NCBI GenBank assembly: GCA_049999805.1
Contig: JBNGIO010006285.1
Coordinates: 388,444-448,420, forward strand
DNA: 59,977 nt
Reading direction: 5' to 3'
Source: Folioceros fuciformis
Lineage: Eukaryota
How positions within the stretch are numbered: the stretch's first letter is position 1; each line of letters starts with the position of its first letter. Shown in pieces: positions 9,030 to 42,278 of the stretch. The position numbers and the translations under genes were made by a program. The notes beneath the pieces were generated by a model. It had not been told where the DNA came from, made no database searches, and saw nothing but the letters and a program-made list of their open reading frames with translations.

Positions 9030-10196
9030 ATGATTACCAAATTTTCCTGGTTACTCAGGCATTTTTGGTAGTGTAGGAGGTGACCCTTTTTCTACTAAAG
9101 CTTCTGGATTTCTGTATGGTGCACTTCCAGCAGGAACTCTTGGTACAACATCATCAGGGTTGTTTGGCAGTCCACGTTTTGGACAACAGAGTGGTGCAGC
9201 CTCTTCATCTTCAAACCAACAGCAAGCAGGAGTTGACCAGGAATTGGCAACCCTATTCCGAACCCAACAGTAATTTCTCTTGTTATGGCTTTGGCATCTG
9301 CACCTGTTCCTGTCCCTAAAGATTGATTTCGAGGACCATGATCGTTTCAACGGCACAGACTATACTGTATGGTCTATGAGGATCATTCAAATTCTGGAGG
9401 AGAATGAGTTGATGGGAGTTGTCGATGGTTCTGAGCAATCACCAGTCCCAACTCTCACGAATGGTGACGATGTCCTAGCTCGGAAGCGAAGGGACAGGCG
9501 TGCATGTTGTATAATCATTGCTTCTTCGGATAGGACTATGATGCCTCACACTATAAATGTTGTGACCTCTGCAGATGTGTGGAGAACCTTTATGACTATC
9601 TACAAGGACAAGAGCTCTGCCTCTTGGGTTCATTCTTTCCGCGGCATGTTTCATCTGCGGATGAAAGATGAAGAGTTTGTGGAGTCCTATATAAACAAGT
9701 TCAGGACTACACGAGTATATAAACAAGTTCAGGACTCCACGAGCCAATCTTGCATATTGTGGGACTGTCTTGACAAAAGCTCAAGCAATTACTGCCTTCC
9801 TGGCATCATTGCTGGATAGTTATGCTTATTTTATTAGTGCTCAACATGCTAAGATTGATGCAGCCCAGCAACTAGCTAGAGGACGTGCTCTCAATATATC
9901 ACTAGAAGACATGTTTGGGGCATTGCTTGGTGAAGAGCGCACAAGAGGCTTGAAGAAATCTAAGGGGTAGAATCCTAGTTCTAGTAAAGTACTCTTTGCT
10001 AGAAGGGGCAGAGGATCATAACGTGGTAGAGGTGGTCGTGGTAGAAGCTCGCCAACCACAGCTACACAGCCTAATCTCCAGCGTAAGACCTTCACTTGCA
10101 ATTGGTGCAAGATTCCTAGTCATTATGAGAGAGATTGCAAGAAGAAAAAGGTTAGCGAGCCCAAGAAGGAACCTCAATAGTCAGAGTCACATTTGA
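9030..10196 (+). pseudogene. Copia gag remnant (UBN2-type region and CCHC zinc knuckle), frameshifted
   Basis: DRFNGTDYTVWSMRIIQILEENELMGVVDGSE; CNWCKIPSHYERDC near 10097-10138; stops and frameshifts. Confidence 0.85.
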
Positions 10197-10349
10197 TGTC
10201 TACAAGGGCATCTTCGACTTCCAAACCACCTACAATTTTGGCCACCTGTCTCTCCTCAATCAAGATGGTTTGGTCCCTATGTTGCTAGTCTGTCTCGCCA
10301 TGTTCCTAAACCTCATCAACCCTTCTTTCCACCTTCTTCATCTTTAGGT

Positions 10350-11941
10350 GAGCCTGCAACTTATCTTGAAGCTGTCACAGGACCAGAGGCCGAACACTGG
10401 AAGGCAGCTATTGAATCCGAGTACAACTCTCTTATTGAAAATCAAACCTGGTCCTTAGTTGACTTACCCCAGGGCAGGAAACCTCTAGCTTGTAAGTGGG
10501 TTTTTAAGAAGAAGCTGAATGCTGATGGTACTGTCGGAAGATACAAGACCCGATTAGTGGCTAAAGGTTATAGCCAAGTAGAAGGACTTGACTACAACGA
10601 AACATTTGCTCCCGTAGTTAAGGGTACCTCTATCAGGATTTTGCTTGCTCTTGCTGCCCAGTATGTCTTACTAGTCCACCAGCTTGACGTTAAAACAACC
10701 TTCTTGCATAGTTCCTTAGAGGAAGAAATATACATGGCTCAGCCTAAGGGTTACGTGATGGATCCTAAAAAGGTGTGCAAGTTGTTGATGACGTTGTATG
10801 GTCTTAAACAATCTTCCCGAGCATGGAATGAAACCTTCCATGCACTTCTTATAGAACTTGGATTTACATGTTCAGCAGCTGATACAAGCGTTTATATTTT
10901 ATGGGATCAGGATGACTTCATCATCATTTCTAATTATGTTGATGATAATTTCCTATTCTGTACATCTGCTGCTTTGCTGGAGAGGATTAAGAAGGTGCTT
11001 CTTGCTCGTTTTGAGATGACAAATCTGGGACAACTTTCTTTTTCCCTTGGTGTACAATTCCAGTTTGAAGACTCTGGCCATACTATTTACATACACCAGG
11101 AACATTTCGTGGAGCAATTGCTGAGGAAGTTTAATATGGAGAAGTGCAGACCAGTCTCAACTCTTATGTCGTCTGGAGATAAACTTTCCAAGGAACAATG
11201 CCCAATTACCGATGAAGAGAAACAGCAAATGTTTAAGGTGCCTTACAAGCAGGCTGTGAGCAGCTTTATTTATTTAGCAGCCTGGACTCGACTTGATATC
11301 TCGCGTTCTATAAGTTGTGTATCTCAGTTTCTGGAGAATCCTGGTGAGGCGCATTGGACTGCTGTCAAGCAAATATTTCGATATTTGAAGGGGACCCCAA
11401 GATATGGACTTTGTTATAGGAAATAGTCTAAGGGTTTGCAGCTAGTTTCTTTCTGTGATGCCGATTGGGCTGGTGATCCCAATAGCAGAAGGAGCATAGC
11501 TGCGTACTGTAATCTCCTTGGTGGTTCAGCGATTTCTTGGAGAAGAAAAAAGTTAACCACAATCTGCCTTTCTTCAACAGAGGCTGAATACGGCGCTTTA
11601 TTACAAACAGCCAGGGAGGTCATTTGGGTCAAGACACTTTTGAGAGGATTGCAGCAACTTGCCCCAGGACCAACACAACTCTGGTGCGATAACCAGTCGG
11701 CCATTGCCTTGTCAAAGAATCCGGTATTTCATGCCCGTAGCAAACACATTGAGATTATGCACCACTTCACCAGACAGGCTGTTGATAATGGCGAAGTTGT
11801 GGTAAGTTACATTCCTACAGGTGACAACAGTGCTGATCTCTATTCACGAAAGCGTTAGGTAAGCCTTTACACAACAAACACTCTGCTGCTGCTGGTTTAC
11901 AACAAGTCCAAGCGTCAACAATTAAGGGTAAGGCCCATTAG
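10350..11941 (+). pseudogene. Copia reverse transcriptase and RNase H remnant; protease and integrase absent
   Basis: EPATYLEAV, KWVFKKK, AKGYSQVEGLDYNETFAPV, QLDVKTTFL, LYGLKQSSRAW, YVDD, CDADWAGD, SSTEAEY, CDNQSAI, SKHIEI; stop at 11424-11426 and a frameshift near 11840. Confidence 0.92.
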
Positions 11942-19447: not shown

Positions 19448-22400
19448 ATGGCAACCTCTGTGGCCTACGCGCCGTCTTGTGCTGCTCCGTGCCTGGGATG
19501 TGGGTCACCTAAACGCACACGACACCAGGTGTCATCTCCTTTCTTCAATTTCTCCAATTGCAGCTTCGCGGCACGCACCTTTGTGCAATTCCGGGCACGT
19601 GGTTCATGGGAGAACGCAAATTCACGGCCTTCGGCTGGAAACGAGAAGTCACATTCCTGGAAAAGACGGCCCTGCCCGCCAGAGATCATATCGGCCCACC
19701 CTGTGAGTTGCTGCTGGCAAATGAGTCATCTAAATCCTACGGGTGTTTGGAGGCGGAGGTTCTCCCGTCTCACAGATGATGTCTCTAGTCGGAGAACGAG
19801 ACCCAGTATGTGGTATGAGAGAGGGCGAGCAGGGTCGGGAAGCAGGAAGAGTGGCGATTATTTGGTGAGGATGGCTTATATATCTCCTCCTGCGCATCCC
19901 AACTTTCTTTCCCAGTCAGATGATGAGACTGACGCTGATGAGAAAACTGGGGGCCCAGCAGGGGCAGTCTCACAGGTTGAACCGGTTATAACGTGGGCCC
20001 TCGTTAGCCGCCTTCTGATGAAAGAGAAGCTGCGTATTGCTGGCTCTGTCGTTGGACTGGTCTGTGCTACTGCCTGCACTCTCACCATGCCACTCTTTTC
20101 TGGTATTCATCCACATGCTTTCTCATGTTCTTGGATTAGCTTCGTGTGTGCACGGAGATGCCAACTTCGTGATCCACCAGCCTGTTCTGTTTGGGACTCC
20201 AAGTCATTTGATCAACATCCATCCACAGTGTAACCTACAAACTGATGCTAATTATCTTCGATATGCATCTCTGTTATTCAGGTCGGTTTTTTGAGACACT
20301 CATTGGTGCTCGACCTGAGCCACTATCGCAGCTGCTCACCAAGTTGGGTGCTATCTACGTCGCCGAGCCTGCATTCACTGTCTTGTTCGTTACCAGCATG
20401 GTGACCGTGTGGGAAAGAGTGATGGCGAATCTACGTTCTGAGATCTTCAGGCGACTTTTAATTCAGAAGGTTTTTATCCTTCGAGATTTCTTCCTTTTTG
20501 GTGTGCAATGAAGTGACGAGCTTTCCTCCAACTGACGACTCATGACTTTTGTCTGTTCAGGTTGAGTTTTTTGATCGCCACAAGGTGTGTTGGACATGAG
20601 TTGGGCTTCGGTTCCTTGTATTTCTTCGTTCTCTCCCTCTGGCGTGAACATTTCGGTTCAACTATGGCTGCAGGTTGGTGAGCTCACTGGTTTGCTTTCA
20701 TCAGAACTTGGAGCACTAAAGGATATTGTCAATGAAAACGTTTCCAGAGACCGTGGCTTTCGAGCCATATGTGAGGTAAGCACGTGAACAGCCACCTGGA
20801 AAGAATCAGATGTGGAGAACGTGGGCTGATCTTGTGTGTGGTATATTTTGTCGCTGCAGATGCTTGGGACCCTGACAATCCTTTTCTATCTATCAGCTCA
20901 GTTAGCTCCTGTTCTGGGGTTGCTGATGTTGACCATTTCAGCCACTGTGGGTAAGCGTTTGTAGAATGTCTTGAATAGATTTTCTATGCCATTGTTGTTG
21001 ATTTAGCTTGGCCAATGACTTCTATTGCATCTCCAAAAATGCAGAAACTGATATGGTCGGAGCTTGATTTCTTGGACAGCAATCTACAAGCGGACTACCA
21101 TGCCGGTTTTCAAAGCACACGGCATAGCACTTGCTCGAATCAGTGATTGTGCCAGTGAGACTTTCTCAGCCATTCGGACGGTATGCTGTAGCAATGCAGC
21201 AAGGGGTGTCCTGCTGCGCTCCCCGTTTGAAAGTAGCTCAGTTTCTTAGGATGGTTTTACTGTTGCTGAGATAAAACGCTTCTTCACAGGTACGGTCTTT
21301 TGGGGGAGAGAAACGGCAGATGTCAGCATTTTATGAACAGGTGACATTCCTCTTGATCTGCAAGCGGGTTCACATATGTGCTGCTGGCTGTGCATCTGGG
21401 CCTCCATGATTAGCACTCTTTTTCTGACATGTTAATGAACAGGTTCTAGCATACCAAAGAAGTGGGAATAAGCTTGGAGTGCTCAAATCTGCGAATGAGT
21501 CATGGACTCGCATTGCTGTATATGTTTCACTGATGGCCCTCTACGTCCTAGGAGGACAGAAAGTTAGAGCGGTATGCATTGAGTTGTAGCAATATTCCAT
21601 GGTGTTCATTCACCTGCCGTGCTTAACGCGCTTCTTAGAATCTCTAGATGACCTGCTGTTTTCCCTGGCATGATATTTGGTGCACTGGAGTGCAGGGCGA
21701 ACTTGCAGTGGGGAAGATGGTTTCGTTTATCGGATACACATTCACCCTAACTTTTGCAGTAAGATCTCTTTGCAGCTGCACTGAGTCAGAGAACCTCTGC
21801 CAGAGGACTGTTGCTTTGCTGTGATATTTGATGATCTCATACTTCGAATGCGATTGGCTCAGGTTCAGGGAGTGGTGAACACACTTGCAGATGTGCGTGG
21901 AATGCTGGCTGCCGTCGAGCGCATCAATTCTATTGTAGCAGGAACAGAAGTGGACGAGTCTCTGGCACGAGGGTTAGACAGGGAAGTCGAGGATGAGTCA
22001 GCTGCCAATTCTGCCAGCAAAGGGGGTGAGACCTATCGCCGAGGAAGAGCATCCCATTTGGGAAAAACGTCGCAGGTGTTTAAGCCAACCCGGAGCGTAT
22101 GTGAGCTTGCGTGGAGTGGAGACGTTGTGCTTCAAGGTACGGTGGAGTTCGGATATTGTAGATCTATGTGCCTGGATGTCAGCTGTCGCACTTTCCCAAT
22201 CCAAAGCTACCGCTGCCGAAGGGCACAAGTGTCCTCGGTGTAGCTCGGCAACCACAGCTGGTGAGCCTCGTGGAGGCGGTAGCTAATGTCTTCCTCTTCC
22301 ATGTGGGGCAGATGTGCACTTTGCATATCCTTTACGTGCAGATGTAGAAGTGCTGAGAGGCATAACGTTAAGGCTAAAGCGAGGGACAGTCACTGCAGTC

Positions 22401-23639
22401 GTGGGGTCCAGTGGTGCAGGGAAAAGTACAATAGTGCAGCTTCTTGCTCGCTTCTACGAGGTGTGCTCCTTGGGGCTAACTCATTTGCAGCCAGTCTTGG
22501 AACCTATTGCTGTAGTCTCATCACTAACAGTAGAGGTGTTCCATATACGTTGTTGTCAGCCAACCAAGGGGCGGATCACGCTTGCTGGAGAGGATGTCCG
22601 GCTGTTTGACAAGTCAGAGTGGGCTCGGGCCATATCGATTGTGAATCAGGCAAGGAATGATTGTTGGATGGAAGTTCCCAAACCCTGCTGCCTCCCATTT
22701 CCAGCGAGGCCATGTATGACGATGAGAGGCTGAGCATCCTACCACTTTTGTCCATCTGCAGGAACCAGTACTGTTTGCTATGTCTGTTGCGGAGAATATC
22801 GCCTACGGGTTGCCGGATGACGATGTACCGCAAGATGAGATTGTGAAAGCTGCCAAGGCTGCAAATGCGCATGATTTTGTCACAGCTCTTCCTCAGGTCC
22901 GGTATTTCTCCCCGCTCACGTGAAGGCTCCCCTTCGTTCGTCGCTACTAATACATGCTCTACTGGCTTCAGGGGTACAATACTCTTGTAGGAGAGCGTGG
23001 AAGTTTGCTGAGTGGAGGACAACGCCAGGTACTTCCCTATACTTATCCTACTCTTCAGGAGCTAGCTCTCCAAGAAACGGCCATCGTCTACATCTGACCG
23101 TGCCTTGTCTTTCGAAACAGAGAATAGCCATTGCGAGGGCTTTGTTAAAGAATGCTCCGATTTTGATTCTGGATGAGGTAAGGAGTACATTTGCTCTGCC
23201 ACACTGCTCGTCCTCACTATCGCGAGTGTTCTACAACTGAGCCAACCCTCAGCTAACATCTGCCCTAACTTGTCACACAGGCAACAAGTGCCCTAGATAC
23301 CGTAAGCGAGCGGCTTGTGCAGGACGCTCTTGATCGGCTCATGAAGGTTTACTTTCTCACGCCACCGGATCTCATCTATCAGCCGCTCACGTTGCTCCAT
23401 TACACCCCGCCCATGCGCTTCCTGCAACAGTCATTACTAAAGTTTGCACTGACTCTTCTTTTCAGGGAAGAACTACCCTCGTCATTGCTCACAGGCTGAG
23501 TACAATACAGGTAGCGGACCAGATCGCCGTTTGTGCGGATGGGAAGGTGGTGGAGATCGGAAGCCACTCTGAGCTTCTGGGACGAGGTGGATTGTACTCC
23601 TCTCTTGTAAGCGGGCAGCAATTGTCGTCGAGTGAGTGA
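19448..23639 (+). CDS. ABCB28: ABCB-type half transporter, ABCB28/NAP8-like, organelle-targeted, many exons
   Basis: [37 protein letters not shown], Walker [11 protein letters not shown]-loop [48 protein letters not shown]. Confidence 0.92.
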
Positions 23640-23731
23640 AAGCAAAATGCCCGAACGTAGGCCGGGATTAACCCCCCTTCACTTGTTGAGGGATTTACCT
23701 TAATGCCCCGTGAAGTACATACATGCAGTAG

Positions 23732-24715
23732 TTATTCGTCGCGCGTTGATGTAAACGCTGAAGTGTACTTGACTTCTGTTTTCTGACTCTGCCACGACGG
23801 CGGCATAAACGGTGCAACAACCCGCATCGGGTTGCCTTGGTGGTTTAACACAATGGGAAGAAGTTGCTCAAAAAGTTCATAACACGGTGTAACAGCGCTT
23901 CCTCCACTAATCTGGATTCGTCCCGATTCGAAGACCGTAACCGACAAATTGTTGTGCTCGAACACCATGGTCAACATTCCACCCATGTTTGGGTACGTCC
24001 TAACCACCAGCTCTTTCAATTTGAGTCGCCCCCACAGATATTTGTGCAGGGTTGACGAGAGCCCTTCCAGATCGATTCCCATTGAGAGCTGGCCTACTGG
24101 AGGCCTAGCATCCAGAACAAGCTCGCAGATGGCAAGATCGTCAGGATCGAAACTCACATCGTGCTCCAAGGCCTTCATCATCTTGACAAGCATCATGCAA
24201 ACGTGATGTTGTTGCTCACTCGTTGCAACTCCTGTCACGACTACCTTTCCCATTTCAAATAAGCGTAAGGTCAAATTGGGAGAGGACAAGGCATCCCGGA
24301 CTCGGACATCCATCTTGACCACCTTCAATTCTCCATTAGCATCACATCCTTGCTCCACCTGCAAGACTTTCACATCTCCATTGGCGTACTCTCTGCGCTT
24401 GAATTTGTAGAAGTTGATGAAATCAAGGTTCCTAGCCAAATCTTTGAAGTCGAATTCCCCTTGTAGAGTAGTGACCCCTGCCACGTTCACTACCTTGGGT
24501 ATCACGTTCCATACGTTTTTGCTCTGCACTGTAAGCTCTTCCTCCTCGCTCATCACCGCTAGGCCTTGTGATACGTCTTTGTATGATAGAGGCTTATTAC
24601 TAACGGTCCACACCTCTTCCACATAGCAATCACCCTTCTTCTTCTTCTTGGAATCCGTGGAGGACATAGAGTCGTCCACCTTCCTTTTCCCCTTCTTGGA
24701 ATCGTTAGAGCCCAT
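23732..24715 (-). CDS. Intronless, highly divergent TATA-binding-protein-fold protein (TBP-related), 327 aa
   Basis: Two TBP repeats: [24 protein letters not shown]...[22 protein letters not shown] and IDLEGLS...[17 protein letters not shown]...[11 protein letters not shown]; basic N-terminal NLS-like segment. Confidence 0.8.
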   Translation of the reverse strand: [327 protein letters not shown]

Positions 24716-24842
24716 CCTCCTCCTCCCTGCTGCAATACTTAGAAGGAGGTGCGTCTTTGTGCACTACACTAGGGCTTGTATCAATGGTCCTCTATTGTGC
24801 AAACATACATAATATAGACGAGAATTCAATATATTTGGTGAC

Positions 24843-24891
24843 ACTTATCCGCATATATAGAGGCTCACATTGACTTATCTGCATATATAGA
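24843..24891 (-). promoter_or_regulatory. Duplicated TATA-containing 19-mer upstream of the TBP-like gene
   Basis: Minus strand TCTATATATGC(A/G)GATAAGT twice, 30 bp apart. Confidence 0.5.
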
Positions 24892-25474
24892 TGTGAACAA
24901 TAAATAAAATGTAAACCGTAGGGCCGAGGTCCAAGGACATCACTTGTTTCAGGCGTTTCATTATTTTATAATTTTAAATTATTTATCTGATAATTCCATC
25001 ATTCACGATCGTATCTGGTTTTAAAATTTTACATGCGGGGATAAATCCAGGGCGGCCCGATGTGTGTCGTGTTGCTCGGAAGATGGGCAAAGGTAACGTT
25101 GTGTGACTATCATTTTCTGTTTGCTCATGCGGTTTCAGTTGGGATCGACGATCTTGACCTGGTGAGGGTTAGAATGAGAATCCAGAAGTTCATCACTTGT
25201 GCGTGGTACATGCTTGAATTCGTTGAACACATAGTAATACTCTGAGGGGAATCTGTGTGCTTGCGAGGAGGCGAAGAGAACCGCGACTTCCCCGTCGACT
25301 GTGTTGAGAACTTGAGCTGAGGAACTGGCTCAGTACATGAGATGCCTGGTCCACGGCTGGGGTTCGAGATTCAGGGATCTTGGTCAATGGCAGCCACGCA
25401 TGGGTTTCGCCAGTTGTGGAAGATGACCACCTGGCCAACCGGAGCTAAGTTTTGGGTGCAGGGGAGGTTCAATT

Positions 25475-28400
25475 ATGCCTCTGCGAATAATGGTTGCCTG
25501 CAATATGGCACGCCATTCACGCAGAGGGGGGCATGGGTTCCTGTGGCGACACCCTTCATGGAGCGGTGAAACACGAATTGGTGGTGTCACGGGTGGAAGT
25601 TCTGTTGGCTTGACTGCCGGAGGAAGCATGGTTGAGAAGACAGCTTGGGTGAATGTGCACGCGGGTCGTGAGGCCTGCCCGGCTGTAGAAAATGGGAGGG
25701 GTGTGTCGGCTCACACCGTCAGTGAACTGTGTCAGCAGGGGCAGGTCGCAAAGGCTGTTGAGGCTCTGGGAGTTCTGGTGCAGATGAACTGGGTTGCTTC
25801 TCAATCTCTTCTCTATGCTGTCCTCAAAGGTTGTGCAGCGACGAAGGATCTCGTTATGGGTCGCCGGGTTCATGGTCTTATCGTTGAAAATGGACATGAG
25901 TTGGATACGTTTCTGTGCAACCACGTTCTGCGGATGTATGCTTCTCATGGCAGGTTGCAGGAAGCAATGGATGTGTTCACCGTGGTTGCCCAGCCAAATG
26001 CATTCATGTGGTCTTCCATGATTTCCGCCCATATTCAGCACGGACAGGCTAAGCACGCTGTAGAACTATATCACCAGATGCGCAGGTCGAGTGTGGAGCC
26101 CGATGGGCATGTCTTCTTAGCAGCCTTGCAGGCTTGCGGAAGGGCGGGAGACTTAGAAACTGGACAGCAGGTGCATGCTGATGTGCTGGCGAGTGGGGTT
26201 GAGCCTAAGCTGTTTGTTCTCAACTCCTTAGTGGACATGTATGCAAAGTGTGACAGCTTGCAAGGCGCTCGAAGAGTGTTTGACGGGCTCCTTGAAAAGG
26301 ATGCGGTAACCTGGAATGCTATGATAGCAGGATATTCTCAGCAGGGCATGAGTCAAGAGGCTCTTCGTCTGTACGATGCCATGCTGGAAGAAGGCATCAC
26401 TGGGCCCAATTCTGTTACGTTCGTGTCCCTTCTGCAGGCTTGTGCAAATCTGGGCAGCGCAGCTTTGGAGACTGGGAAGCAGCTTCACACACACATGGTA
26501 CAACGAGGAATCCATGTCACTGGGACCCTAGCCAACAGCTTGGTAAACATGTATGCAAAGTGTGGATCCCTTGCAGATGCTCAGGCCGTGTTCGAAGCAC
26601 AAGTTGCGAAAGACGTGGTGACATGGACCTCTCTTATTGCAGGGTATTCCCAGCAGGGCAAGGCCCTGGAGGCCCTTGAGCTGTACCGTAGGATGCAGGA
26701 AGAAGGTTCTGCCGCGCCCAACTCTGTGACTTTTGTGTGCCTCCTCCAGGCATGTGCAACTGCTGATCCCCCGGCTTTGGAGAAGGGAAAGCAGCTTCAT
26801 GCACAGATTGGAGAACGAGGTCTGGATACTGATGAGATCGTAATCAACGGTCTAGTAAACATGTATGCAAAATGTGGCAGCCTGGAGGATGCTCAGCTAA
26901 TGTTTTATGGCCTTCGTCCAAGCAATGTCGTCACCTGGACCGCTTTGATAGCAGCGTATGCAAGGCAGGGCATGGGTCAGGAAGCCCTTCGTCTTTTCAG
27001 TGCTATGCAAGAACAAGGCATTGCAGAACCTGATTCTGTGACATTTGTTGGCCTTTTGCAGGCATGTGCAAATGTTGGTGCCGCGGCTTTGAACACTGGA
27101 AAGCAGATCCATGCTCAGATTGGAGAAAGAGGACTTCAGGTTGATGGGGTTGTAGCTAGCAGCCTGATAAGTATGTATGCCAAATGTGGCAGCCTAGAGG
27201 ATGCCCAGACTGTGTTTGATGCACTCTGTGAAAAGGATGTGGTGACATGGAATGCTATGATCGCAGGATATTCTCAGCAGGGCATGGGTGAGGAGGCCTT
27301 TCATCTCTATTGCACTATGCAAGAGGAGGCCATCAGTGCACCCAATTCCGTGACATTTGTGTGCCTCTTGCAGGCGTGTGCAAGTCTGAGAACGCAAGTG
27401 TTGGAAAGGGGAAAACAGCTTCATTCACAGATTGGAGAACGAGGACTTGAGGCTGACGTGGTTGTGGCCAACAGTTTGGTGCACATGTATGCAAAGTGTG
27501 GCAGCCTACGGGATGCGCAGTGCATGTTTGACAGACTCCTTGAAAAGGATGTCGTGACGTGGAATATCATGATAGCAGGATACTCTCAGCAGGGTATGGG
27601 TCAGGAAGCTCTCCAACTATACAGTGTTATGCAGGAAGAGGGCATTGTTTCACCGAATTCAGGGACTTTTGTTTGCCTCCTGCAAGCATGTGCAAGTCTG
27701 GGTCCCCTGGCATTGGAGAAAGGAAGGGAGCTTCATGAACAGATCAGGGCTCAAGGACTGCAGATTGATTTGGTTGTGGGTAGCAGCCTAGTAGACATGT
27801 ATGCAAAGTGTGGCAACCTTCAAGAAGCTCATACTTTGTTTCACAAACTCGATCAGAAAAACCTGGTGACTTGGACTGCTCTGATAGCAGGTTATTCCCA
27901 GCAGGGCATGGGTCAGGAAGCTCTTCGTCTTTACGCAGCTATGCAAGAAGAAGGCATCACTGCACCCGATTCTGTCATGTTTGCAAGTCTTCTCCACGCA
28001 TGTGCAGATGTGGCAGCTTTGCATCAAGGAAGGCAGCTTGATGCAGAGATCAGAGAGCAAGGACTTGAAGCTGACGGGTTTGTGGCCATCAGCTTGATGA
28101 ACATGTATGCCAAGTCTGGAAGTTTGGTGGACGCACAACAGGTGTTTGATGCATTACCCAAAAGAGATGTTGTCTCTTGGAATACGCTGATTGCCGGTTA
28201 CGCTTGTCAAGGAGACAGTGATGCGGTGTTTGATATGGTTGACAGAATGAAAGCGGAAGGAGTACAGCCAGACAGCGTCACATTCATCAGTATATTATCA
28301 GTATGCAGCCACGTGGGACTGGTGCACAAGGGTCGAGAGTATTTTTTGGCTATGAGCGACTTCGGCATCACCCCTACCACGGAGCACTACACGTGCATGG

Positions 28401-28846
28401 TGGATCTCTTGGGCCGTGTAGGCCGACTTGACGAGGCATTAGTTGTGGCAAGGACCATGCCTGGACGTCCTGATACTGCAGTTTGGCACACTCTGTTAGG
28501 TGCTTGTCGAAAGTGGGGGAACGTGGAGGTGGGACTCCATGCGTTCGAAGAAGCAGTAAAGCTCGATGAAACGGATGTGGCAGCATGTGTATCAATGGCC
28601 AACATATATGCCGATGCCCAAATGTGGGAGCAGGCCAGGACGATGCAGGCGAGAAGGGTAGGGATTGGGACATGGAAGCAGCCAGGCAGGAGCTGGTGGA
28701 CAGACGAGGCCGGGCTGGTGCATAGTTTTGTGGCTGGGGATTCAAACCATCCCGACAGTAATGGCATATATGTAAAGTTGGACCAGCTTCTTTCTGAAAC
28801 GAAGAAGATGGGATGTCTTTCGTGGTCGGAAGATCTATCTAACTAG
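25475..28846 (+). CDS. PLS-class PPR protein with E1-E2-E+ end and no DYW domain (organellar RNA-editing factor); start codon uncertain
   Basis: Single exon; P-L-S triplets (VVTWNAMIAGYSQQG / PNSVTFVCLLQAC / SLVNMYAKCGSL), P2-L2-S2, E1 WHTLLGACRKWGN, PG box KQPGRSWW. Confidence 0.95.
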   Translation: MPLRIMVACNMARHSRRGGHGFLWRHPSWSGETRIGGVTGGSSVGLTAGGSMVEKTAWVNVHAGREACPAVENGRGVSAHTVSELCQQGQVAKAVEALGVLVQMNWVASQSLLYAVLKGCAATKDLVMGRRVHGLIVENGHELDTFLCNHVLRMYASHGRLQEAMDVFTVVAQPNAFMWSSMISAHIQHGQAKHAVELYHQMRRSSVEPDGHVFLAALQACGRAGDLETGQQVHADVLASGVEPKLFVLNSLVDMYAKCDSLQGARRVFDGLLEKDAVTWNAMIAGYSQQGMSQEALRLYDAMLEEGITGPNSVTFVSLLQACANLGSAALETGKQLHTHMVQRGIHVTGTLANSLVNMYAKCGSLADAQAVFEAQVAKDVVTWTSLIAGYSQQGKALEALELYRRMQEEGSAAPNSVTFVCLLQACATADPPALEKGKQLHAQIGERGLDTDEIVINGLVNMYAKCGSLEDAQLMFYGLRPSNVVTWTALIAAYARQGMGQEALRLFSAMQEQGIAEPDSVTFVGLLQACANVGAAALNTGKQIHAQIGERGLQVDGVVASSLISMYAKCGSLEDAQTVFDALCEKDVVTWNAMIAGYSQQGMGEEAFHLYCTMQEEAISAPNSVTFVCLLQACASLRTQVLERGKQLHSQIGERGLEADVVVANSLVHMYAKCGSLRDAQCMFDRLLEKDVVTWNIMIAGYSQQGMGQEALQLYSVMQEEGIVSPNSGTFVCLLQACASLGPLALEKGRELHEQIRAQGLQIDLVVGSSLVDMYAKCGNLQEAHTLFHKLDQKNLVTWTALIAGYSQQGMGQEALRLYAAMQEEGITAPDSVMFASLLHACADVAALHQGRQLDAEIREQGLEADGFVAISLMNMYAKSGSLVDAQQVFDALPKRDVVSWNTLIAGYACQGDSDAVFDMVDRMKAEGVQPDSVTFISILSVCSHVGLVHKGREYFLAMSDFGITPTTEHYTCMVDLLGRVGRLDEALVVARTMPGRPDTAVWHTLLGACRKWGNVEVGLHAFEEAVKLDETDVAACVSMANIYADAQMWEQARTMQARRVGIGTWKQPGRSWWTDEAGLVHSFVAGDSNHPDSNGIYVKLDQLLSETKKMGCLSWSEDLSN

Positions 28847-37233: not shown

Positions 37234-40200
37234 TCAAATGTATAGACAATCTTCACGTGAAGACTGCAGCTTTGCACTTAACTCTACCAGCAAAGCGAAA
37301 ATCGCAGATTCCTGTGGATGTCTACGGTCTTCCACCAGAAAAGTGTGCACCAAATTTCCGTGCTCAATCCAGGTCTGACCAGGTTTTTTCTTTGCACACG
37401 CTTTCCCTCTCAGCTCTTCAACTTCGTTGGCACAGTCCCACATGCCTGCGTCTGCATATATGTTTGACATGAGCACGTAAGCAGCGGATTGTTCTGAATC
37501 CAAGCTCACAGCCTGTTCAAAGCAGCATCTTCCCAGTGCTACATTGCAGTGTTTTTGACAGGCACCGAGCAGTGTCAACCATATTGGCAGATCCGGCAGC
37601 ATGGGCATCGTTGAAAGCAGATCCTCTGCCTTGCGAAACAAGCCTGCACGGCCAACAAGATCCAGAACGCAAGCATAGTGCTCGACATCTGCTGTGATCC
37701 CATGGTATCTTGTCATGTGATCGAAGCACTCCAGTCCTTGATCAACCATACCAGCATGGCTGCAGGAGGAGAGGAGTGCCAGGAATGTTACTCTATCTGG
37801 CTTCTCACCTGCTAGACACATTTCTTCATAGCATTGCATACTCATGTCACAATCTCCTTGTCGAGCATACCCAGCGATCAGTGCATTCCTAGCCACAAGG
37901 TCAGGCTGAGGAAGCAAGTCATACACGTACTGAGCATCCAGCATGCTCCCACATTTTCCGTAAGCGTGGATTAAGCTGCTTGCCACAAAAAGATGACACT
38001 GAAGACCACTCTCTATGATGTTCTTGTGGATCTGCACACAGGAATTCAAGGCTCCTGTGTTGCTGCAAGCATCTAGTGCAGAGAGAGCAGTACTTACCTG
38101 CAACTTCATCCCTTCCCCTTGCATCTGTGCATACAGTTGTAAAGCTTTCTCTCCTTGGTGATGAGTGGCGTACGCTGAAATCATTGCATTCCACGATACC
38201 ACATCGCGTCGACATAGGCTGTCAAAAAAGAGGCGAGCATCATACAGACTGCCACACTTCGCATACAGATTGACCAAGGTGTTCGCCACAAACATATTTG
38301 ACTCGGAGTCCCTCCGAGCAGCTTCAACATGTATTTCCTTCCCTTTTCGCAGTGAATTTACTTTCACTTGCTCCCCATCGACAAGTATGCTTTCCTCTTT
38401 TTCTGCCAGACTGATACACGCCTGTAATGCACTGACGAGGGTACGAGCCTCAATCTTGATGCCTCGCTGCTGCATTTGCGCATACATCTCCAATGCTTCC
38501 TCGCCTTGATCTTGCTGAGAATATGCCGCAAGCATCGCGTTCCATGCCACGATATTGTGATCAGAGAGCTGGTCAAAAACATTACGAGCGTCCAAGATGC
38601 TTCCACATTTTGCGTACACATTAACCAAACTGCTGCCGATGAAGAGATTTGTGTGAAAACCAGCAGCAACAGCCACGGCATGTACTTGCTTCCCTTTGCA
38701 TAGGGACTCCACTTTCACATTTTGACCATTCACTAAGGCACTTTCCTCCTGTCCTGCAAGAGAGCCACACGCCTGGAGGGCACCAACAAAAGTTTGAGAA
38801 CTTGCCATGAGACCTTCCTCTTGTATTCGCCAGAAAATCTCCAAGGCCTTCTCACCGTGGCCATGCTGCACATACGCTGTAATCATGGTACTCCATGCTG
38901 TAACGTCGTGCAGGGGCATTTTGGCACACAGATTTCGCGCTTCCACGACATTCCCACACTTGGCATGTAGACTAATCAGAGCGCTGCGAAGAAACGAGTC
39001 TGATTCGAACCCTCGTTCAGCGGCTTCTAGGTGGATATCTCTGCCCTTCTGTAGTACCTCCCAATTCACATCTTGCCCATCCACCTGTGCACTGCCCTCT
39101 TTTTCTGCGAGGATGCTGCATGCTTCAATAGCTGTGACAAAAGTGCGGACATTTGGCTGGACGTGCTGCACTTGCATTTGCTCATACACTTGCAGGGCAC
39201 GTTCTCCTTGACCCTGCTCAACGTATCCAGCAAGCATAGAATTCCAGGAGACCGTGTCACGTTGGGACAGTCTGTCAAACTCCAGTTCTGCATTGATAAT
39301 GCTGCCACATTTTGCGTACGTACTAACCAAAGTCGTACCAACAAAAACATCCGATCCATAACCCAGCCTCACAGCCTCAGCATGTATCTCCTTGCACTTC
39401 AGCAGTGCTTCCACTTTCATATGTTGCCCAGACACACTTGAACTTCCTTCTTCTTCTTCTGCAAGAGCGCTACATGCTTGCAGAGCACTCACGAAAGTGC
39501 GTGCATCTCGCATGATGCTATCTGGGATTTCTGCATAGATCCGTAGAGCCTTTTCTCCTTGTCGCTGGTGCGCATATCCTGCAATCATGGCATTGATTGA
39601 CACAATGGTGTGTTGAGGCATTTGATTATATACCGTGTATGAGGCCTCAACCCAACCACACTTAGCATATACAGTAACCAAGGTGCTGCCGACAAATATG
39701 TCATTTCCATGACCAAGTCGGATTGCATCACAGTGTATCTGAATGGCCTTCTGGAGCGATTGCACAGTGACGTTTTGCCCAAGGACTAACACTGTTTCCT
39801 CGTGTTCTGCCAAGATACTGCATGCTTGGAGGGCGCTCACAAATGTCCGAGGATCTGGTGTCACGTTTGCCTCTCGCATTGCTAGATAAAGTTGAAAAGC
39901 CTTGTCTGGTTGGTGCTGTTGAGCATATGCTAAAATCATAGAGGTCCAGGACGCACAATTATGATGTGACAATCTGTCAAAGACGTGTTGTGCATCTGCC
40001 AGGCTCCCACACTTCGCATACATAGTCACTAAAGTATTACCAACGAACAAATCCGCTTCAAAACCTCTTACAGAAGCTTCCGCATGAATTTCCTTCCCCT
40101 TCCGAAGCAACTCCACTTTCCCAAGTTCCAGGTCACTTTCAGTTTGTTCTGCAAGGGCACCACATGCTCGGATTACACTTACAAAAGTTCGCTCATCTGG

Positions 40201-41412
40201 CTCAATACCCTGCTCAAGCATTTGTTGAAACATCAGCAAGGCCATTTCTCCTTGCTCATCATGTACATACGCTGCAAGGATTGCGTTCCACGAAACTACA
40301 TTGAGGTGAGACAGTCTGTCAAAAACTTGTCGACCATCCTCTATTCTCTTCAATTTTCCATACATACTAATCAACGAGCTGCCAACAAATGGATCGGATT
40401 CGTAACCGAGCCGAGCAGCTTCAGAATGTATTCCCTTGCCCCTCTCCAGCCAGACATTTTGCCCCACAGCAAGGTCACTGAGCTCTTTCTCTGCAAGAGC
40501 ACCACATGCCTGTATAGTACTGACAAATGTCCAAGCATCTCCTTTGACACCGTGCCCCTGCATTTCTTCAAAAAGACGTAAGGCTTGTTCCTCTTGCCCT
40601 TGCTGTGCATAAGCTGAAAGCATTGCATTCCATGACACCAGGTCACGCTGATCCAACCTATCAAACACCTCCTGCGCATCCAAAATGCTCCCACACTTTG
40701 CATACATGCTAACCAGAGTGTTGGCCACATAAATATCAGATTCAAAACCATGTTCACGAGCATGAGAATGCAGCCGCTTGCCTTCTTGCAAATCTCGCAG
40801 CTTGCTGCATGCCTTCAGCAGGCTGACAACCGTGTATCTATCAGGCTGTATCCCATCCTGTAGCATCTGCTCGTAAGAGGAAAGAGCCTCTCGCCATTGT
40901 CCAGCATTGCCGTACCCTGAGATGATGGCTGTCCAAGAAAACACACTTCGATGCCTTAGTCGGTGAAACACATCAAGTGCATCCCTGAGGCTTCCACACT
41001 TGACCAGAGTGGTGACCAACATGTCTCCCAAAACTCTGTTGGACTCCAGGCCACGTTCAGCCAGATGGGCTTGCACCCACTTGGCATCATCCAACGCCTT
41101 CCTCTTCATGCATGCCTGCAATAACTTCTGATAAATCGGTACCGAGGGTACGCTCCCCTGCTTGTCCATGCGCAGCAGGACAGCGAGTGCCTTGTCGATC
41201 CGTCCCTCATGGCATAAATTCTGCAGCTCCCTGGCATCCTCACAGCTTATCCCCGATCTGAAAGGGCCCTGAACATGAAGACCTGGGTGCAGCAATGAAG
41301 TCTCACGATCTTGGGGTTGCAAGCACACGTGCGGGTTGGTCCTCGCTCCCCATTCAACGTGCGGAAGCGAAATACCTTGGGCTTCCAAGAGAAGAGGCCT
41401 GTGCATGCCCAT
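37234..41412 (-). CDS. PLS-class PPR protein with elongated L motifs, E1-E2-E+ end and no DYW domain
   Basis: Single 1392-aa exon; VSWNAMLSAYAQQG, TLVSMYAKCGSI, seven L motifs with an insertion, E1 WLTLLGACQKHCN, PG box KKKPGQTWIE. Confidence 0.95.
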   Translation of the reverse strand: MGMHRPLLLEAQGISLPHVEWGARTNPHVCLQPQDRETSLLHPGLHVQGPFRSGISCEDARELQNLCHEGRIDKALAVLLRMDKQGSVPSVPIYQKLLQACMKRKALDDAKWVQAHLAERGLESNRVLGDMLVTTLVKCGSLRDALDVFHRLRHRSVFSWTAIISGYGNAGQWREALSSYEQMLQDGIQPDRYTVVSLLKACSKLRDLQEGKRLHSHAREHGFESDIYVANTLVSMYAKCGSILDAQEVFDRLDQRDLVSWNAMLSAYAQQGQEEQALRLFEEMQGHGVKGDAWTFVSTIQACGALAEKELSDLAVGQNVWLERGKGIHSEAARLGYESDPFVGSSLISMYGKLKRIEDGRQVFDRLSHLNVVSWNAILAAYVHDEQGEMALLMFQQMLEQGIEPDERTFVSVIRACGALAEQTESDLELGKVELLRKGKEIHAEASVRGFEADLFVGNTLVTMYAKCGSLADAQHVFDRLSHHNCASWTSMILAYAQQHQPDKAFQLYLAMREANVTPDPRTFVSALQACSILAEHEETVLVLGQNVTVQSLQKAIQIHCDAIRLGHGNDIFVGSTLVTVYAKCGWVEASYTVYNQMPQHTIVSINAMIAGYAHQRQGEKALRIYAEIPDSIMRDARTFVSALQACSALAEEEEGSSSVSGQHMKVEALLKCKEIHAEAVRLGYGSDVFVGTTLVSTYAKCGSIINAELEFDRLSQRDTVSWNSMLAGYVEQGQGERALQVYEQMQVQHVQPNVRTFVTAIEACSILAEKEGSAQVDGQDVNWEVLQKGRDIHLEAAERGFESDSFLRSALISLHAKCGNVVEARNLCAKMPLHDVTAWSTMITAYVQHGHGEKALEIFWRIQEEGLMASSQTFVGALQACGSLAGQEESALVNGQNVKVESLCKGKQVHAVAVAAGFHTNLFIGSSLVNVYAKCGSILDARNVFDQLSDHNIVAWNAMLAAYSQQDQGEEALEMYAQMQQRGIKIEARTLVSALQACISLAEKEESILVDGEQVKVNSLRKGKEIHVEAARRDSESNMFVANTLVNLYAKCGSLYDARLFFDSLCRRDVVSWNAMISAYATHHQGEKALQLYAQMQGEGMKLQVSTALSALDACSNTGALNSCVQIHKNIIESGLQCHLFVASSLIHAYGKCGSMLDAQYVYDLLPQPDLVARNALIAGYARQGDCDMSMQCYEEMCLAGEKPDRVTFLALLSSCSHAGMVDQGLECFDHMTRYHGITADVEHYACVLDLVGRAGLFRKAEDLLSTMPMLPDLPIWLTLLGACQKHCNVALGRCCFEQAVSLDSEQSAAYVLMSNIYADAGMWDCANEVEELRGKACAKKKPGQTWIEHGNLVHTFLVEDRRHPQESAIFALLVELSAKLQSSREDCLYI

Positions 41413-42278
41413 GGGCTCCCTTCATCCCGTAACTCGGCAGCCACCAGCACACGGTCCGAGAAACAGCCTAGAGGGCAGGGACACCGTAACATAACTGCAG
41501 TTGGTGATGGAAGCCGAGACCCTACAAAATTCGTCAAAATTCATCTCCGAACCGGGCCTTGTTCTAGAATTATTCAACGCAGCACTACACAGAAAGCTAT
41601 CCTTCCACCAACCGCTCCTCTCTGCCTTGAAGAGGAATCTCTTGTTGTTGCTGCTCTGCGGAAGCCAAAGAATTCTACGACGCTCGGCAGGTCGGCACCA
41701 GCTGCCAGTGGTGAAGTGGATAGGCGGGGGAGCAGAGAACGTGTGCCGCCCCGCCATCGTCCACCTATCAGGCCTCAATAATCGACAGTTCAGTGCGCAC
41801 ACCACAAGGCTCCAACCGACATCGTTATCTCCACAGGAACTTTAAGTGCGCAGCGGCCGCTACGAGGCCTGTTCAAAATCGCACAGACCGCAGAACGAAC
41901 ATGGACACGCAAAATTGTGCTCGCTCATCGCCTTAATGACGAGCAGGCGAAAATCGAAGAGTCCCTACACCATTGTTGAGGGAAAAATTTGAGCTGCAAC
42001 CCGAGGAAAGCCGACTCTCACTCTTAACCGTCCCCACTTTGCCTGGCCGGAAAGAGAACGGCAGCGGCAAAAGGCTTGAGGAGCAGAAGAATTGTTTACC
42101 CCAGGCATAAACCACAGGGCAGGGTTCTGGATTTGCTTGTGCTCCGATTCGAGGCATGCAAGCAGTATCGTACACGGCAGAGGCTCGAGGTGTCGCTCAA
42201 CACCGAGCTGGCTAGCAAAATCTACCTACATTACACCTCATTCCACGGCAATGTGAATGCCGTGGAATGAGCCATCAC

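Follow-up and report, generated by a model that had tools for sequence, protein, structure and literature searches.

A single-exon, highly diverged TBP-like gene of Folioceros fuciformis that has most likely lost TATA binding

The genome of Folioceros fuciformis contains a single-exon gene for a highly diverged protein of the TATA-binding protein (TBP) family. We favor the reading, with a probability of roughly 0.55, that this is a real gene, restricted to its lineage, in a non-flowering land plant. Its product would probably be nuclear and would keep a complete TBP saddle, yet it would no longer bind TATA. The ancestor would have been either the host TBP, copied as a retrocopy, or a viral or otherwise foreign TBP. 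Because the full saddle is kept while most DNA and partner features are lost, the protein looks like a repurposed copy of a transcription factor.

The gene occupies positions 23732 to 24715 on the minus strand of the window, that is, of the whole stretch of 59,977 nucleotides that was analysed (Table 1). According to the ORF listing it encodes 327 aa in one exon. The start ATG lies at 24715 and the stop codon at 23732-23734. The stop-to-stop frame spans 343 codons, and frameshifts are absent. An initial annotation of this DNA had reported an intact ORF of this length with a Lys-rich N-terminus, and we recover both: the translation contains the K/R runs KKGKRK and KKKKK. These runs suggest that the tail could serve as a nuclear localization signal (NLS). 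Within the tail coding region, a 48-nt tandem duplication gives two 12-residue units, and a direct repeat (24639-24667 and 24687-24715) is 76% identical at a spacing of 48. AF2 assigns the tail a pLDDT below 50. The third-position GC content (GC3) of the ORF is 0.58, compared to 0.47-0.60 in three host ORFs and 0.38 in a copia reverse transcriptase. In the DNA runs, read depth over the ORF equals the depth of its flanks.

Table 1. Positions of the features discussed in the text, numbered from the first letter of the window.
Feature	Positions	Strand	Basis
Lys-rich, NLS-like N-terminal tail, residues 1-33	24617..24715	-	translation, K/R runs
First TBP repeat, residues 70-186, S1-H1-S2-S3-S4-S5-H2	24158..24508	-	AF2 DSSP, alignments
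Elongated S2-S3 hairpin, residues 114-140, core of the ~25-residue insertion	24296..24376	-	MAFFT, AF2
Second TBP repeat, residues 187-293, S1'-H1'-S2'-S3'-S4'-S5'-H2'	23837..24157	-	AF2 DSSP
Two 19-nt TATATA elements, candidate core promoter	24843..24891	-	direct repeat, ~130-175 nt upstream of the ATG
Final coding exon with stop codon, convergent ABC-B-type transporter gene	23464..23639	+	RNA-derived contig, sequence
Divergent PLS-class PPR gene with E and E+ motifs	25475..28846	+	Pfam PPR, PPR_2, E_motif, Eplus_motif
RNA-derived contig of run X3	23464..24472	not given by the contigs	ORF codons 82-327 and last ABC exon

The protein matches the Pfam TBP profile PF00352 in two stretches with an E-value of 4.8e-11 and 42.8 bits, exceeding the gathering cut-off of 22.9 bits. 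A eukaryotic TBP profile, which we built from the retrieved eukaryotic TBPs of at least 170 aa, scores it at 43.2 bits. The best of 500 shuffles of the query reaches only 2.7 bits against this profile. Hence, the match to TBP is far above chance. TBPs also fill 34 of the 35 rows of phmmer matches in the PDB. An archaeal TBP profile yields 22.3 bits as opposed to the 43.2 bits of the eukaryotic one, and in our tree the query falls on the eukaryote side of the archaea/eukaryote split (100*). By these comparisons the sequence is eukaryote-type and not archaeal.

Identity to cellular TBPs is nevertheless only 15-25% in sequence alignments. The second repeat is the best-conserved part, with 28% identity over 155 aa to the retrieved locus L005. 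Three residues that are invariant in the TBP alignment are present (G156, G162 and P242), and F153, K157, V159, F262, G265 and G271 occupy nearly invariant columns. As judged from the alignment, the structural pattern of Gly, Pro and hydrophobic residues is intact in both repeats. Four matches to TBP had been proposed by eye: a 10-residue segment for S1/H1, a 17-residue segment for S4/S5, IDLEGLS for H1' and a 25-residue segment for S4'-H2'. All four recur in a MAFFT alignment of the query with 13 retrieved TBPs as well as in the HMMER alignments. The gene thus lives up to its initial description as an intronless, radically diverged TBP-fold gene: a single exon, low identity and a match in both family and fold.

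The fold itself comes from an AF2 model guided by a 66-row TBP alignment (mean pLDDT 74.3). In blocks of 10 residues, pLDDT is mostly above 85 across residues 71-290 (range 50-96), and it is 90 or higher at 133 residues. The model predicts that both repeats are complete and form a ten-stranded saddle with four helices. DSSP places the strands of the first repeat at residues 74-86, 114-124, 130-140, 148-153 and 157-163, with helices at 90-103 and 166-182. In the second repeat, strands are found at 195-203, 236-241, 247-252, 257-262 and 267-270, and helices at 216-230 and 275-290. Superposition on Arabidopsis TBP gives a VIA Z of 17.0 and an rmsd of 2.8 Å over 191 of 191 residues, a likeness that is partly built in because a TBP alignment guided the model. 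VIA lists 38 TBP entries with Z of at least 14.4, and the next unrelated fold has a Z of 8.4. Foldseek against the PDB (E<=0.001) agrees: among the matches listed, the top 44 are all TBP entries. A single-sequence AF2 model has low confidence (pLDDT 39.5), and from about residue 115 its order of strands and helices is much the same as in the guided model. Both a PF00352 match above the cut-off and a saddle structure, proposed as checks of the initial annotation, have therefore been obtained, the latter from the guided model.

Canonical TBP has four intercalating Phe, two per repeat. It contacts the minor groove through Asn/Val/Val/Thr in each repeat and has a strongly basic core. Most of this make-up is gone in the Folioceros protein. 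Its core is acidic (net charge -4, pI 5.88), whereas all eight comparison TBPs have a net charge between +8 and +19 and a pI of 9.38-10.06. An acidic overall charge alone does not prove that DNA binding is absent. The loss is uneven: the strands of the N-terminal repeat carry 8 K/R against 3 D/E, those of the C-terminal repeat 1 K/R against 2 D/E. Basic residues kept in the N-terminal half include R138, R140, R151 and K157, and most basic residues of helix H2 are replaced. Only two of the four Phe appear retained, F153 and F262, as the initial annotation had said; both residues stand in nearly invariant Phe columns. The other two Phe positions are taken by V132 (Y109 in MAFFT) and the M244/G245 region (Y241 in MAFFT), and residue assignments in both stirrups differ between the two alignments.

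The contact positions follow the same division between the repeats. In repeat 1, N77, V159 and T161 are kept and one Val is replaced by A79. In repeat 2, the central Asn has become E198, Val has become Q268 and Thr has become S270, so that V200 is the only contact residue left. The DNA-contact roles of these TBP residues are in part those given in the available text of PMC3142196. None of the features of a canonical TATA binder (four Phe; basic core and contacts; TFIIB Glu pair) is found in full. Judging by its sequence, the protein is most likely no longer a working TATA-binding protein.

Partner surfaces have changed as well. In canonical TBP the N-terminal stirrup lies on the TFIIA side. 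Here it carries an insertion of about 25 residues relative to all 13 aligned TBPs, predicted to form an elongated S2-S3 hairpin of two 11-residue strands (mean pLDDT 76-89 over blocks 111-140). The same two strands are present in the single-sequence model. In the C-terminal stirrup, the YEPE(I/L)FPG segment of TBPs aligns with RTYPNMGG, which is devoid of Glu. The Glu pair of this stirrup is important for TFIIB (E144/E146 of A. thaliana TBP2, in the available text of PMC10005294). Going by the alignment, the TFIIB-contacting pair is lost.

The TBP-like gene sits between ordinary host genes, as initially proposed. Its stop codon lies 92 nt from the stop of the convergent ABC transporter gene at 23639, for which ABC_tran Pfam matches are found in the plus-strand ORFs 22287-22730 and 22875-23237. 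On the other side follows the PLS-class PPR gene. The two TATATA repeats upstream of the ATG (24843-24861 and 24873-24891) are 95% identical and lie in an AT-rich setting (GC of 0.43 across 24780-25400); their position suggests that they may act as the core promoter. The only flanking repeat that could indicate retroposition or a transposon is a 24-nt pair, 71% identical (23679-23702 and 24940-24963). A pair like this can arise by chance in 3 kb of sequence and hence is no sign of either process. No poly(A) remnant was seen at the gene.

Transcription is suggested by a contig of 3415 nt from run X3 that shows splicing across the ABC gene and extends to 24472. Among the joints listed for X3, eight GT..AG or CT..AC joints are lacking in the DNA runs X1 and X2, and we therefore read X3 as RNA. 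No run listed with this sequence is recorded as RNA, and the label of X3 ("RNA?") is itself tentative. The contig is unstranded, is merged with the convergent ABC mRNA and ends at codon 82 of the TBP-like ORF. Thus, it could be a long 3' UTR of the ABC gene. The listed contigs leave parts of the ORF upstream of 24472 uncovered, a gap that carries no information on expression.

Close relatives were sought in three kinds of data. An exhaustive phmmer search of 1.84 billion representative proteins, without length limit, gave one match, P0001 (E 2.8e-4), and nothing above 36.5 bits. P0001 is an ordinary eukaryote-type TBP, and we rejected it as a special relative. A word-index homologue search with the query at near and shorter lengths gave 0 matches. 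In IMG/VR, none of the stretches matched could be confirmed as a relative of the query: 0 of 11 for peptides of the query itself, 0 of 97 for the 13-TBP alignment and 0 of 9 for P0001. A second alignment (A2) found four viral TBP loci there at 26 bits or less, none close to the query. In metagenomes, peptides taken from the query hit 395 stretches, of which 0 were confirmed. The 13-TBP alignment matched at least 593 stretches, and the two confirmed ones are canonical GC-rich eukaryotic TBPs. Across representative proteins, IMG/VR and metagenomes we thus find no orthologue or paralogue, and any statement on function consequently rests on inference.

We also rejected our tree (81 rows, quick method) as evidence for the origin. 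The query branch is at the length ceiling of 10 and pairs with L003, another branch at the ceiling, and no starred clade in the tree contains the query. This is a long-branch artefact. Of the phylogenetic placement that the initial annotation had called for, the position on the eukaryote side stands and any closer placement falls; the archaea/eukaryote split is all that we retain. Residues shared specifically with plant TBPs give no signal either.

One possible, tentatively held alternative is that the gene was once the TBP-like gene of a giant virus, from the Nucleocytoviricota or Mirusviricota, or of another mobile element. It would have been inserted singly and would now be domesticated or a still-open relic. 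TBP-like proteins of Heterosigma akashiwo virus 01, a mimivirid, a marseillevirus and a pithovirus (TFIID-like), the ASFV B263R homologues and poxvirus VITF-3 are highly diverged, intronless TBP folds, often longer than the core (230-500 aa). Foldseek finds them with E-values of 1e-10 to 1e-5 and a TMt of up to 0.75. In BFVD, 63 viral models match at E<=0.001, the best being the Heterosigma akashiwo virus TBP at 1e-10. The ESM Atlas feature search, in which 30 of 30 matches belong to the TBP set, has three Nucleocytoviricota clusters at its top ("putative TATA box binding protein", 250-293 aa, score 0.95). Once PF00352 clusters are left out, a hypothetical giant-virus cluster and the poxvirus family of intermediate transcription factors, PF05718, come closest, each with 0.91. 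These high scores are weak evidence because the Atlas recognition value, 1758, is below the 2300 of most known families. Moreover, diverged TBP folds may merely resemble other diverged TBP folds. Foldseek E-values are alike for viral and cellular matches, but identity is lower to viral models (6-14%) than to cellular TBPs (14-19%, of which the eukaryotic ones reach 17-19%); across the structural alignments, identity to cellular TBPs is put at 17-23%.

In favor of a viral source, the gene is intronless amid neighbors that are intron-rich according to the contig joints, and exclusive residue matches to plant TBPs number 2, compared to 7 with Entamoeba and 6 with L005/L006. In their available text, PMC4083422 documents footprints of giant viruses in a moss and a lycophyte, and PMC10132985 counts TBP among the core genes of mirusviruses. 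TBP goes unmentioned in the available main text of PMC4083422, though, and the genes it gives for such insertions are MCP, D5 helicase, PolB, packaging ATPase and RNA polymerase subunits. We find no such cluster of viral core genes around the TBP-like gene in the window. A Pfam scan of 169 of the 190 window ORFs of at least 90 aa detected plant-type and copia families only and no viral hallmark family. The other 21 ORFs are the TBP-like ORF itself or lie on two PPR genes; a separate scan covered three of them, namely the TBP-like ORF and both PPR frames. The ordinary plant neighbors, the host-like GC3 and the IMG/VR result likewise speak against a virus.

Other alternatives concern function. 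The protein could still bind DNA, like TRF1/TRF3 or as a plant analogue of TRF2/TLF, and nucleate an alternative, non-TATA initiation complex at some promoters. The preserved saddle of the model, the NLS-like tail, the retained F153, F262, N77, V159, T161 and V200, and the basic strands of the N-terminal half are all compatible with this idea. The metazoan TLF (TRF2/TBPL1) offers a precedent: it is a TBP paralogue in which, as here, some of the intercalating Phe and, by inference, TATA binding are gone, and the Folioceros protein would likewise be a nuclear regulator on the same saddle (available text of PMC3142196 and PMC10005294). TLF can still drive initiation (PMC3142196, likewise). In that text, however, TLF is about 40% identical to TBP and keeps TFIIA and TFIIB binding. 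The Folioceros protein is half as similar, both its stirrups are altered and, with TLF known here by description, we find neither that level of identity nor the TFIIA/TFIIB surfaces. Promoter binding and canonical TFIIA/TFIIB docking are both argued against by its acidic core, by the Glu in the middle of the repeat 2 DNA face, by the missing Glu pair for TFIIB and by the rebuilt stirrup on the TFIIA side. These features weaken the idea of an alternative initiation complex raised in the initial annotation, and we regard a DNA-binding factor as unlikely. A TBP antagonist, the other role raised there, is conceivable.

More doubtful still is a non-functional copy, recently inserted or decaying, with a frame left open by luck and an RNA signal that belongs to the ABC gene. 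An orphan without detectable relatives in the searches run, covered by unstranded RNA that ends inside the ORF and degraded in most functional TBP surfaces, could look like this. Yet a stop-free frame of 343 codons at about 48% GC would be improbable by chance, frameshifts are missing, structural Gly, Pro and hydrophobic residues keep their pattern, and AF2 models much of the protein with high confidence. Degradation has struck the surfaces selectively and spared the core, the signature of neofunctionalisation rather than of decay.

What our preferred reading, a repurposed TBP-fold gene, implies beyond the fold and the sequence features is inferred from one copy in one genome. The open frame and the preserved fold suggest that selection has kept the TBP fold, since drift to about 20% identity would have littered the 327 codons with stops and frameshifts. 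The protein would enter the nucleus by means of its K/R-rich tail. There it would act through protein-protein contacts on its remodelled surface instead of TATA binding, nor would it seed pre-initiation complexes on DNA. It might be a regulator or decoy that acts on a basic partner, for example TBP's own DNA-binding face. Alternatively, it might be the scaffold of a lineage-specific complex.

A bolder version of this proposal strikes us as improbable. Here the first plant TBP-related factor would have arisen within the lineage, or been taken over from a giant virus and domesticated, as a nuclear "anti-TBP" with a neutral or acidic DNA face and rebuilt stirrups. If true, it could cap the basic DNA face of TBP or of another basic partner, or titrate initiation factors. 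Transcription initiation would then be controlled at a new level, either globally or in particular tissues.

In the available text of PMC3142196, TBP-related factors are described from animals only. Arabidopsis has two nearly identical TBPs, and plant TBPs differ among themselves by about 10% (available text of PMC10005294), whereas the identity found here is only 15-25%. Compared to canonical eukaryotic TBP (Arabidopsis TBP1/TBP2; PDB 6uep, 1qn7 and 1vok), the Folioceros protein has the common two-repeat topology and shares N77, G156, G162, P242, G265 and G271. In contrast, canonical TBP has a pI of 9.4-10.0 instead of 5.9, all four Phe and the TFIIB Glu pair, lacks the insertion in the N-terminal stirrup, and has shorter H1 and H1' helices. 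The single-exon structure of the Folioceros gene is a further difference.

Few eukaryotic proteins are as conserved as TBP, and we found no plant TBP-related factor in the literature searched. An intact, diverged plant gene of this family would therefore be informative. With its saddle kept, its charge inverted and both stirrups rewired, the protein would be a natural experiment on a TBP fold freed from DNA binding. The gene might be a new regulator of transcription initiation or a trace of gene flow from viruses to plants.

The TBP-like gene lies on a single exon, inside a longer stop-free frame. Its product (the query) matches the Pfam family PF00352 (TBP) in two stretches with E 4.8e-11 and 42.8 bits, well above the gathering score of 22.9 bits. 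Against a profile that we built from retrieved eukaryotic TBPs of at least 170 aa the query scores 43.2 bits, and 500 shuffled versions of it reach at most 2.7 bits. When PDB sequences are searched with phmmer, TBPs make up 34 of the 35 rows, led by the Encephalitozoon TBP (E 2e-4, residues 143-293 aligned). Identity to TBPs is only 15-25%. The initial annotation had proposed an intact, diverged TBP-fold ORF with four stretches matching TBP by eye. The ORF is borne out by these scores, and all four stretches appear again in MAFFT and HMMER alignments. Both sequence and fold thus assign the query to the TBP family.

Guided by an alignment of the query with 65 retrieved TBPs, AlphaFold gives a model with mean pLDDT 74.3 and pTM 0.67. 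Between residues 71 and 290 most 10-residue blocks exceed 85 (range 50-96). The order S1-H1-S2-S3-S4-S5-H2 is complete in both repeats, so that the anticipated TBP saddle is recovered, in a model whose likeness to TBP has to be read in light of a guiding alignment made up of TBPs. The model without an alignment is poor (pLDDT 39.5), and its strands and helices follow much the same order from about residue 115 onward. Foldseek against the PDB returns 44 matches with E≤0.001, with TBP entries only among the matches listed (target TM 0.28-0.80, free TBP chains 0.63-0.80, identity 14-19%). VIA-align superimposes the model on the A. thaliana TBP over 191 of 191 residues (Z 17.0, rmsd 2.8 Å); 38 TBP entries reach Z≥14.4, compared to 8.4 for the best unrelated fold. 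The query has a complete TBP saddle, and it is the DNA face, both stirrups and the basic patch of H2 that are altered.

The core of the query (residues 70-293) has a net charge of -4 and a pI of 5.88. All eight comparison TBPs, trimmed to the same profile, carry +8 to +19 (pI 9.38-10.06). The charge is markedly asymmetric: the strands of repeat 1 contain 8 K/R and 3 D/E, those of repeat 2 contain 1 K/R and 2 D/E. The roles of individual DNA-contact positions are taken from TBP-DNA structures. Two intercalating Phe positions, F153 and F262, are retained as the initial annotation stated, and both fall into nearly invariant Phe columns. With the conserved MRIR/VRVR motif as anchor, the S3 Phe position corresponds to V132, and MAFFT gives Y109; the C-stirrup Phe position corresponds to the M244/G245 region, or to Y241 in another alignment (MAFFT). 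Among the minor-groove contacts, N77, V159, T161 and V200 are retained, and four are substituted (Val to A79, Asn to E198, Val to Q268, Thr to S270). The intercalating Phe pairs are also described in PMC3142196.

The partner surfaces have changed as well. The N-terminal stirrup, the TFIIA side of canonical TBP, carries an insertion of about 25 residues relative to TBPs, for which the model predicts a pair of 11-residue strands (114-124 and 130-140; mean pLDDT 76-89 in blocks 111-140). In place of the K/R-rich helix H2 of TBPs, the query has [17 protein letters not shown]. In the stirrup, YEPE(I/L)FPG of TBPs pairs with RTYPNMGG of the query; both Glu of the TBP segment contact TFIIB according to PMC10005294. 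The query differs from a functional TATA-binding TBP in its Phe set, in the lack of a basic core and in the loss of the TFIIB Glu pair. Nor does it resemble metazoan TLF, which has about 40% identity to TBP and retains its TFIIA and TFIIB surfaces (PMC3142196). TBP-related factors are described there from animals. For Arabidopsis, PMC10005294 describes two TBPs that are about 10% different. In searches of open-access text we found no plant TBP-related factor. The sequence and fold features of the query are unusual and firmly established, and all findings on it come from a single copy in a single genome.

Residues 1-69 are disordered in the model. This tail starts with a tandem duplication that yields two NLS-like S-x-DSKK(K/G)K units. 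One unit follows each of the in-frame Met M1 and M17; a start at either ATG would give an NLS-like N-terminus.

The gene sits between host genes, as initially noted: the last exon of a convergent ABC transporter gene lies 92 nt away, stop to stop, and a divergent PLS-class PPR gene about 760 nt away. We scanned 169 of the 190 window ORFs of at least 90 aa with Pfam. The other 21 comprise the query ORF itself and those that lie on the two PPR genes; the query and both PPR frames, three in all, were scanned separately. The families found are plant-type only (RRP7, Ycf48, EF-Ts, ABC, Nol11/Utp12, PPR, BSD2/DnaJ zinc finger, biopterin-dependent hydroxylase, RRM and GDSL lipase), next to one copia element. 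Viral hallmark families were absent from the 169 ORFs. GC3 of the TBP-like ORF is 0.58, compared to 0.47-0.60 in three host ORFs and 0.38, well below, in the copia reverse transcriptase. A 19-nt element containing TATATA occurs in two copies about 130-175 nt upstream of the ATG, in an AT-rich stretch. Neither poly(A) remnants nor convincing target-site duplications or terminal repeats are present in the flanks of the gene.

Features of the window and of two viral contigs
Feature	Position (strand)	Remarks
TBP-like gene	23732-24715 (-)	327 codons, ATG to stop; stop-free frame of 343 codons, extends to 24763
48-nt tandem duplication	24639-24715 (-)	within first 32 codons of the TBP-like ORF; 29-nt core, 76% identical
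ABC / TBP-like pair	23639-23732	one RNA-derived contig across both; potential natural antisense pair
Unbroken part of the X3 contig	23464-24472	covers codons 82-327 of the TBP-like ORF
Copia-type LTR retrotransposon remnant	9274-11423 (+)	gag PF14223 and reverse transcriptase PF07727, separate frames/ORFs
PPR gene	25680-28717 (+)	stretch of raised contig depth over the gene, 80-1240 in all three runs, flanks ~10-40
Second long PPR gene	37234-41421 (-)	E motif
Exon-sized hydroxylase ORF	44377-44916 (+)	strong match to biopterin-dependent aromatic amino acid hydroxylase (PF00351, E 1.8e-68)
Stop-free frame	55081-56112 (-)	344 codons; without a match in Pfam, even at E≤1; Ser/Thr/Ala-rich, basic C-terminus (RRRKKRK)
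TBP-domain protein, viral contig L003	857-2566	same 570-aa protein as in L004
TBP-domain protein, viral contig L004	2764-4473	same 570-aa protein as in L003

Three further features of the window deserve mention. At the first PPR gene contig depth is raised, and cross-joints and loose ends are numerous; this pattern indicates that near-identical paralogues of the PLS class form a very large PPR family. The biopterin-dependent hydroxylase occurs in non-flowering plants and is not known from angiosperms, in keeping with a genome of bryophyte, lycophyte, fern or gymnosperm grade. The stop-free frame may be non-coding or another orphan.

The window is covered by three sequencing runs. For X1 and X2 the material is DNA of a single sample, possibly the one behind the assembly; X3 comes from another study and agrees with the window without any sequence difference. 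Eight GT..AG or CT..AC joints are listed for X3 in EF-Ts, ABC and downstream genes. Because X1 and X2 have none, X3 is at least partly RNA-derived. One X3 contig (3415 nt) is spliced ABC mRNA and then continues unbroken into the TBP-like ORF. With stop codons this close, the 3' UTRs of the two genes must overlap. Transcription of both would be expected to produce a merged contig. Contigs are strandless, and an ABC 3' UTR of 830 nt would give the same picture. For expression of the TBP-like gene the contig is a hint, not proof.

Where does the gene come from? Word-index searches with the query return no relative. Among 1.84e9 representative proteins there is one match with E≤0.001 (36.5 bits), a normal eukaryote-type TBP whose identity to TBPs of Entamoeba, fungi and plants is 42%. 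The query's own peptides find no relative in IMG/VR or metagenomes. With generic TBP patterns, none of 97 stretches in IMG/VR and two of at least 593 in metagenomes were confirmed; these two loci, L005 (28% over 155 aa, 50 bits) and L006 (42 bits), are canonical GC-rich eukaryotic TBPs. Against a profile of 80 genome-contig TBPs, mostly archaeal, the query scores 22.3 bits, compared to 43.2 bits with the eukaryotic profile. In a phylogeny, the split between archaea and eukaryotes (SH-aLRT 100) leaves it with the eukaryotes; finer placement failed because its branch reaches the length cap and pairs with the other capped branch. A plant-specific residue signal is absent, with two exclusive matches to plant TBPs, seven to Entamoeba and six to L005/L006. 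We consider host descent about an even bet. Viral or foreign descent is less likely. Pointing to it, the neighbours of the query in a language-model search are giant-virus TBP-like clusters (0.95); with PF00352 excluded, they are a hypothetical cluster of giant viruses and the family of the poxvirus intermediate transcription factor (0.91). The tool's own rating of recognition is low (1758). Many viral TBP-fold models in BFVD reach Foldseek E-values equal to cellular ones, but identity is 6-14% for viral models and 14-19% for cellular TBPs. The literature lends plausibility only: giant-virus footprints occur in a moss and a lycophyte, in a study whose main text does not mention TBP (PMC4083422), and TBP is a mirusvirus core gene (PMC10132985).

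Two loci met in these searches stand apart. The protein shared by the IMG/VR contigs L003 and L004 is an unusual viral TBP-domain fusion, in which only one TBP repeat can be recognised, within about 200 N-terminal residues (YEPEIFPG; 32% to plant TBP), and the long tail that follows is basic and rich in repeats. The other is a TBP on a contig that bears the label of a Trueperaceae (bacterial) MAG. It is 68% identical to plant TBP and falls among eukaryotic TBPs in the tree; the bin is probably contaminated with eukaryotic sequence.

Host or viral origin is orthogonal to function. We infer that the TBP fold is under selection, because 327 codons would not have stayed open under neutral drift to about 20% identity, and such drift would not have spared all structural Gly/Pro and the hydrophobic core. 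An inert relic is improbable. A DNA-binding TRF-like factor, to which the retained contacts could point and the acidic core does not, is only slightly less so. Our overall reading, at a probability of about 0.55, is a real gene for a neofunctionalised, non-TATA-binding TBP-fold protein. Such a protein would enter the nucleus, would no longer clamp TATA DNA and would have lost canonical recruitment of TFIIA or TFIIB. Most likely, it would act through protein binding on its remodelled surfaces. It might be a regulator or decoy whose neutral or acidic concave face pairs with a basic partner, for example, the DNA-binding face of TBP, although this specific "anti-TBP" mechanism is a long shot. Alternatively, it may serve as the scaffold of a lineage-specific complex.
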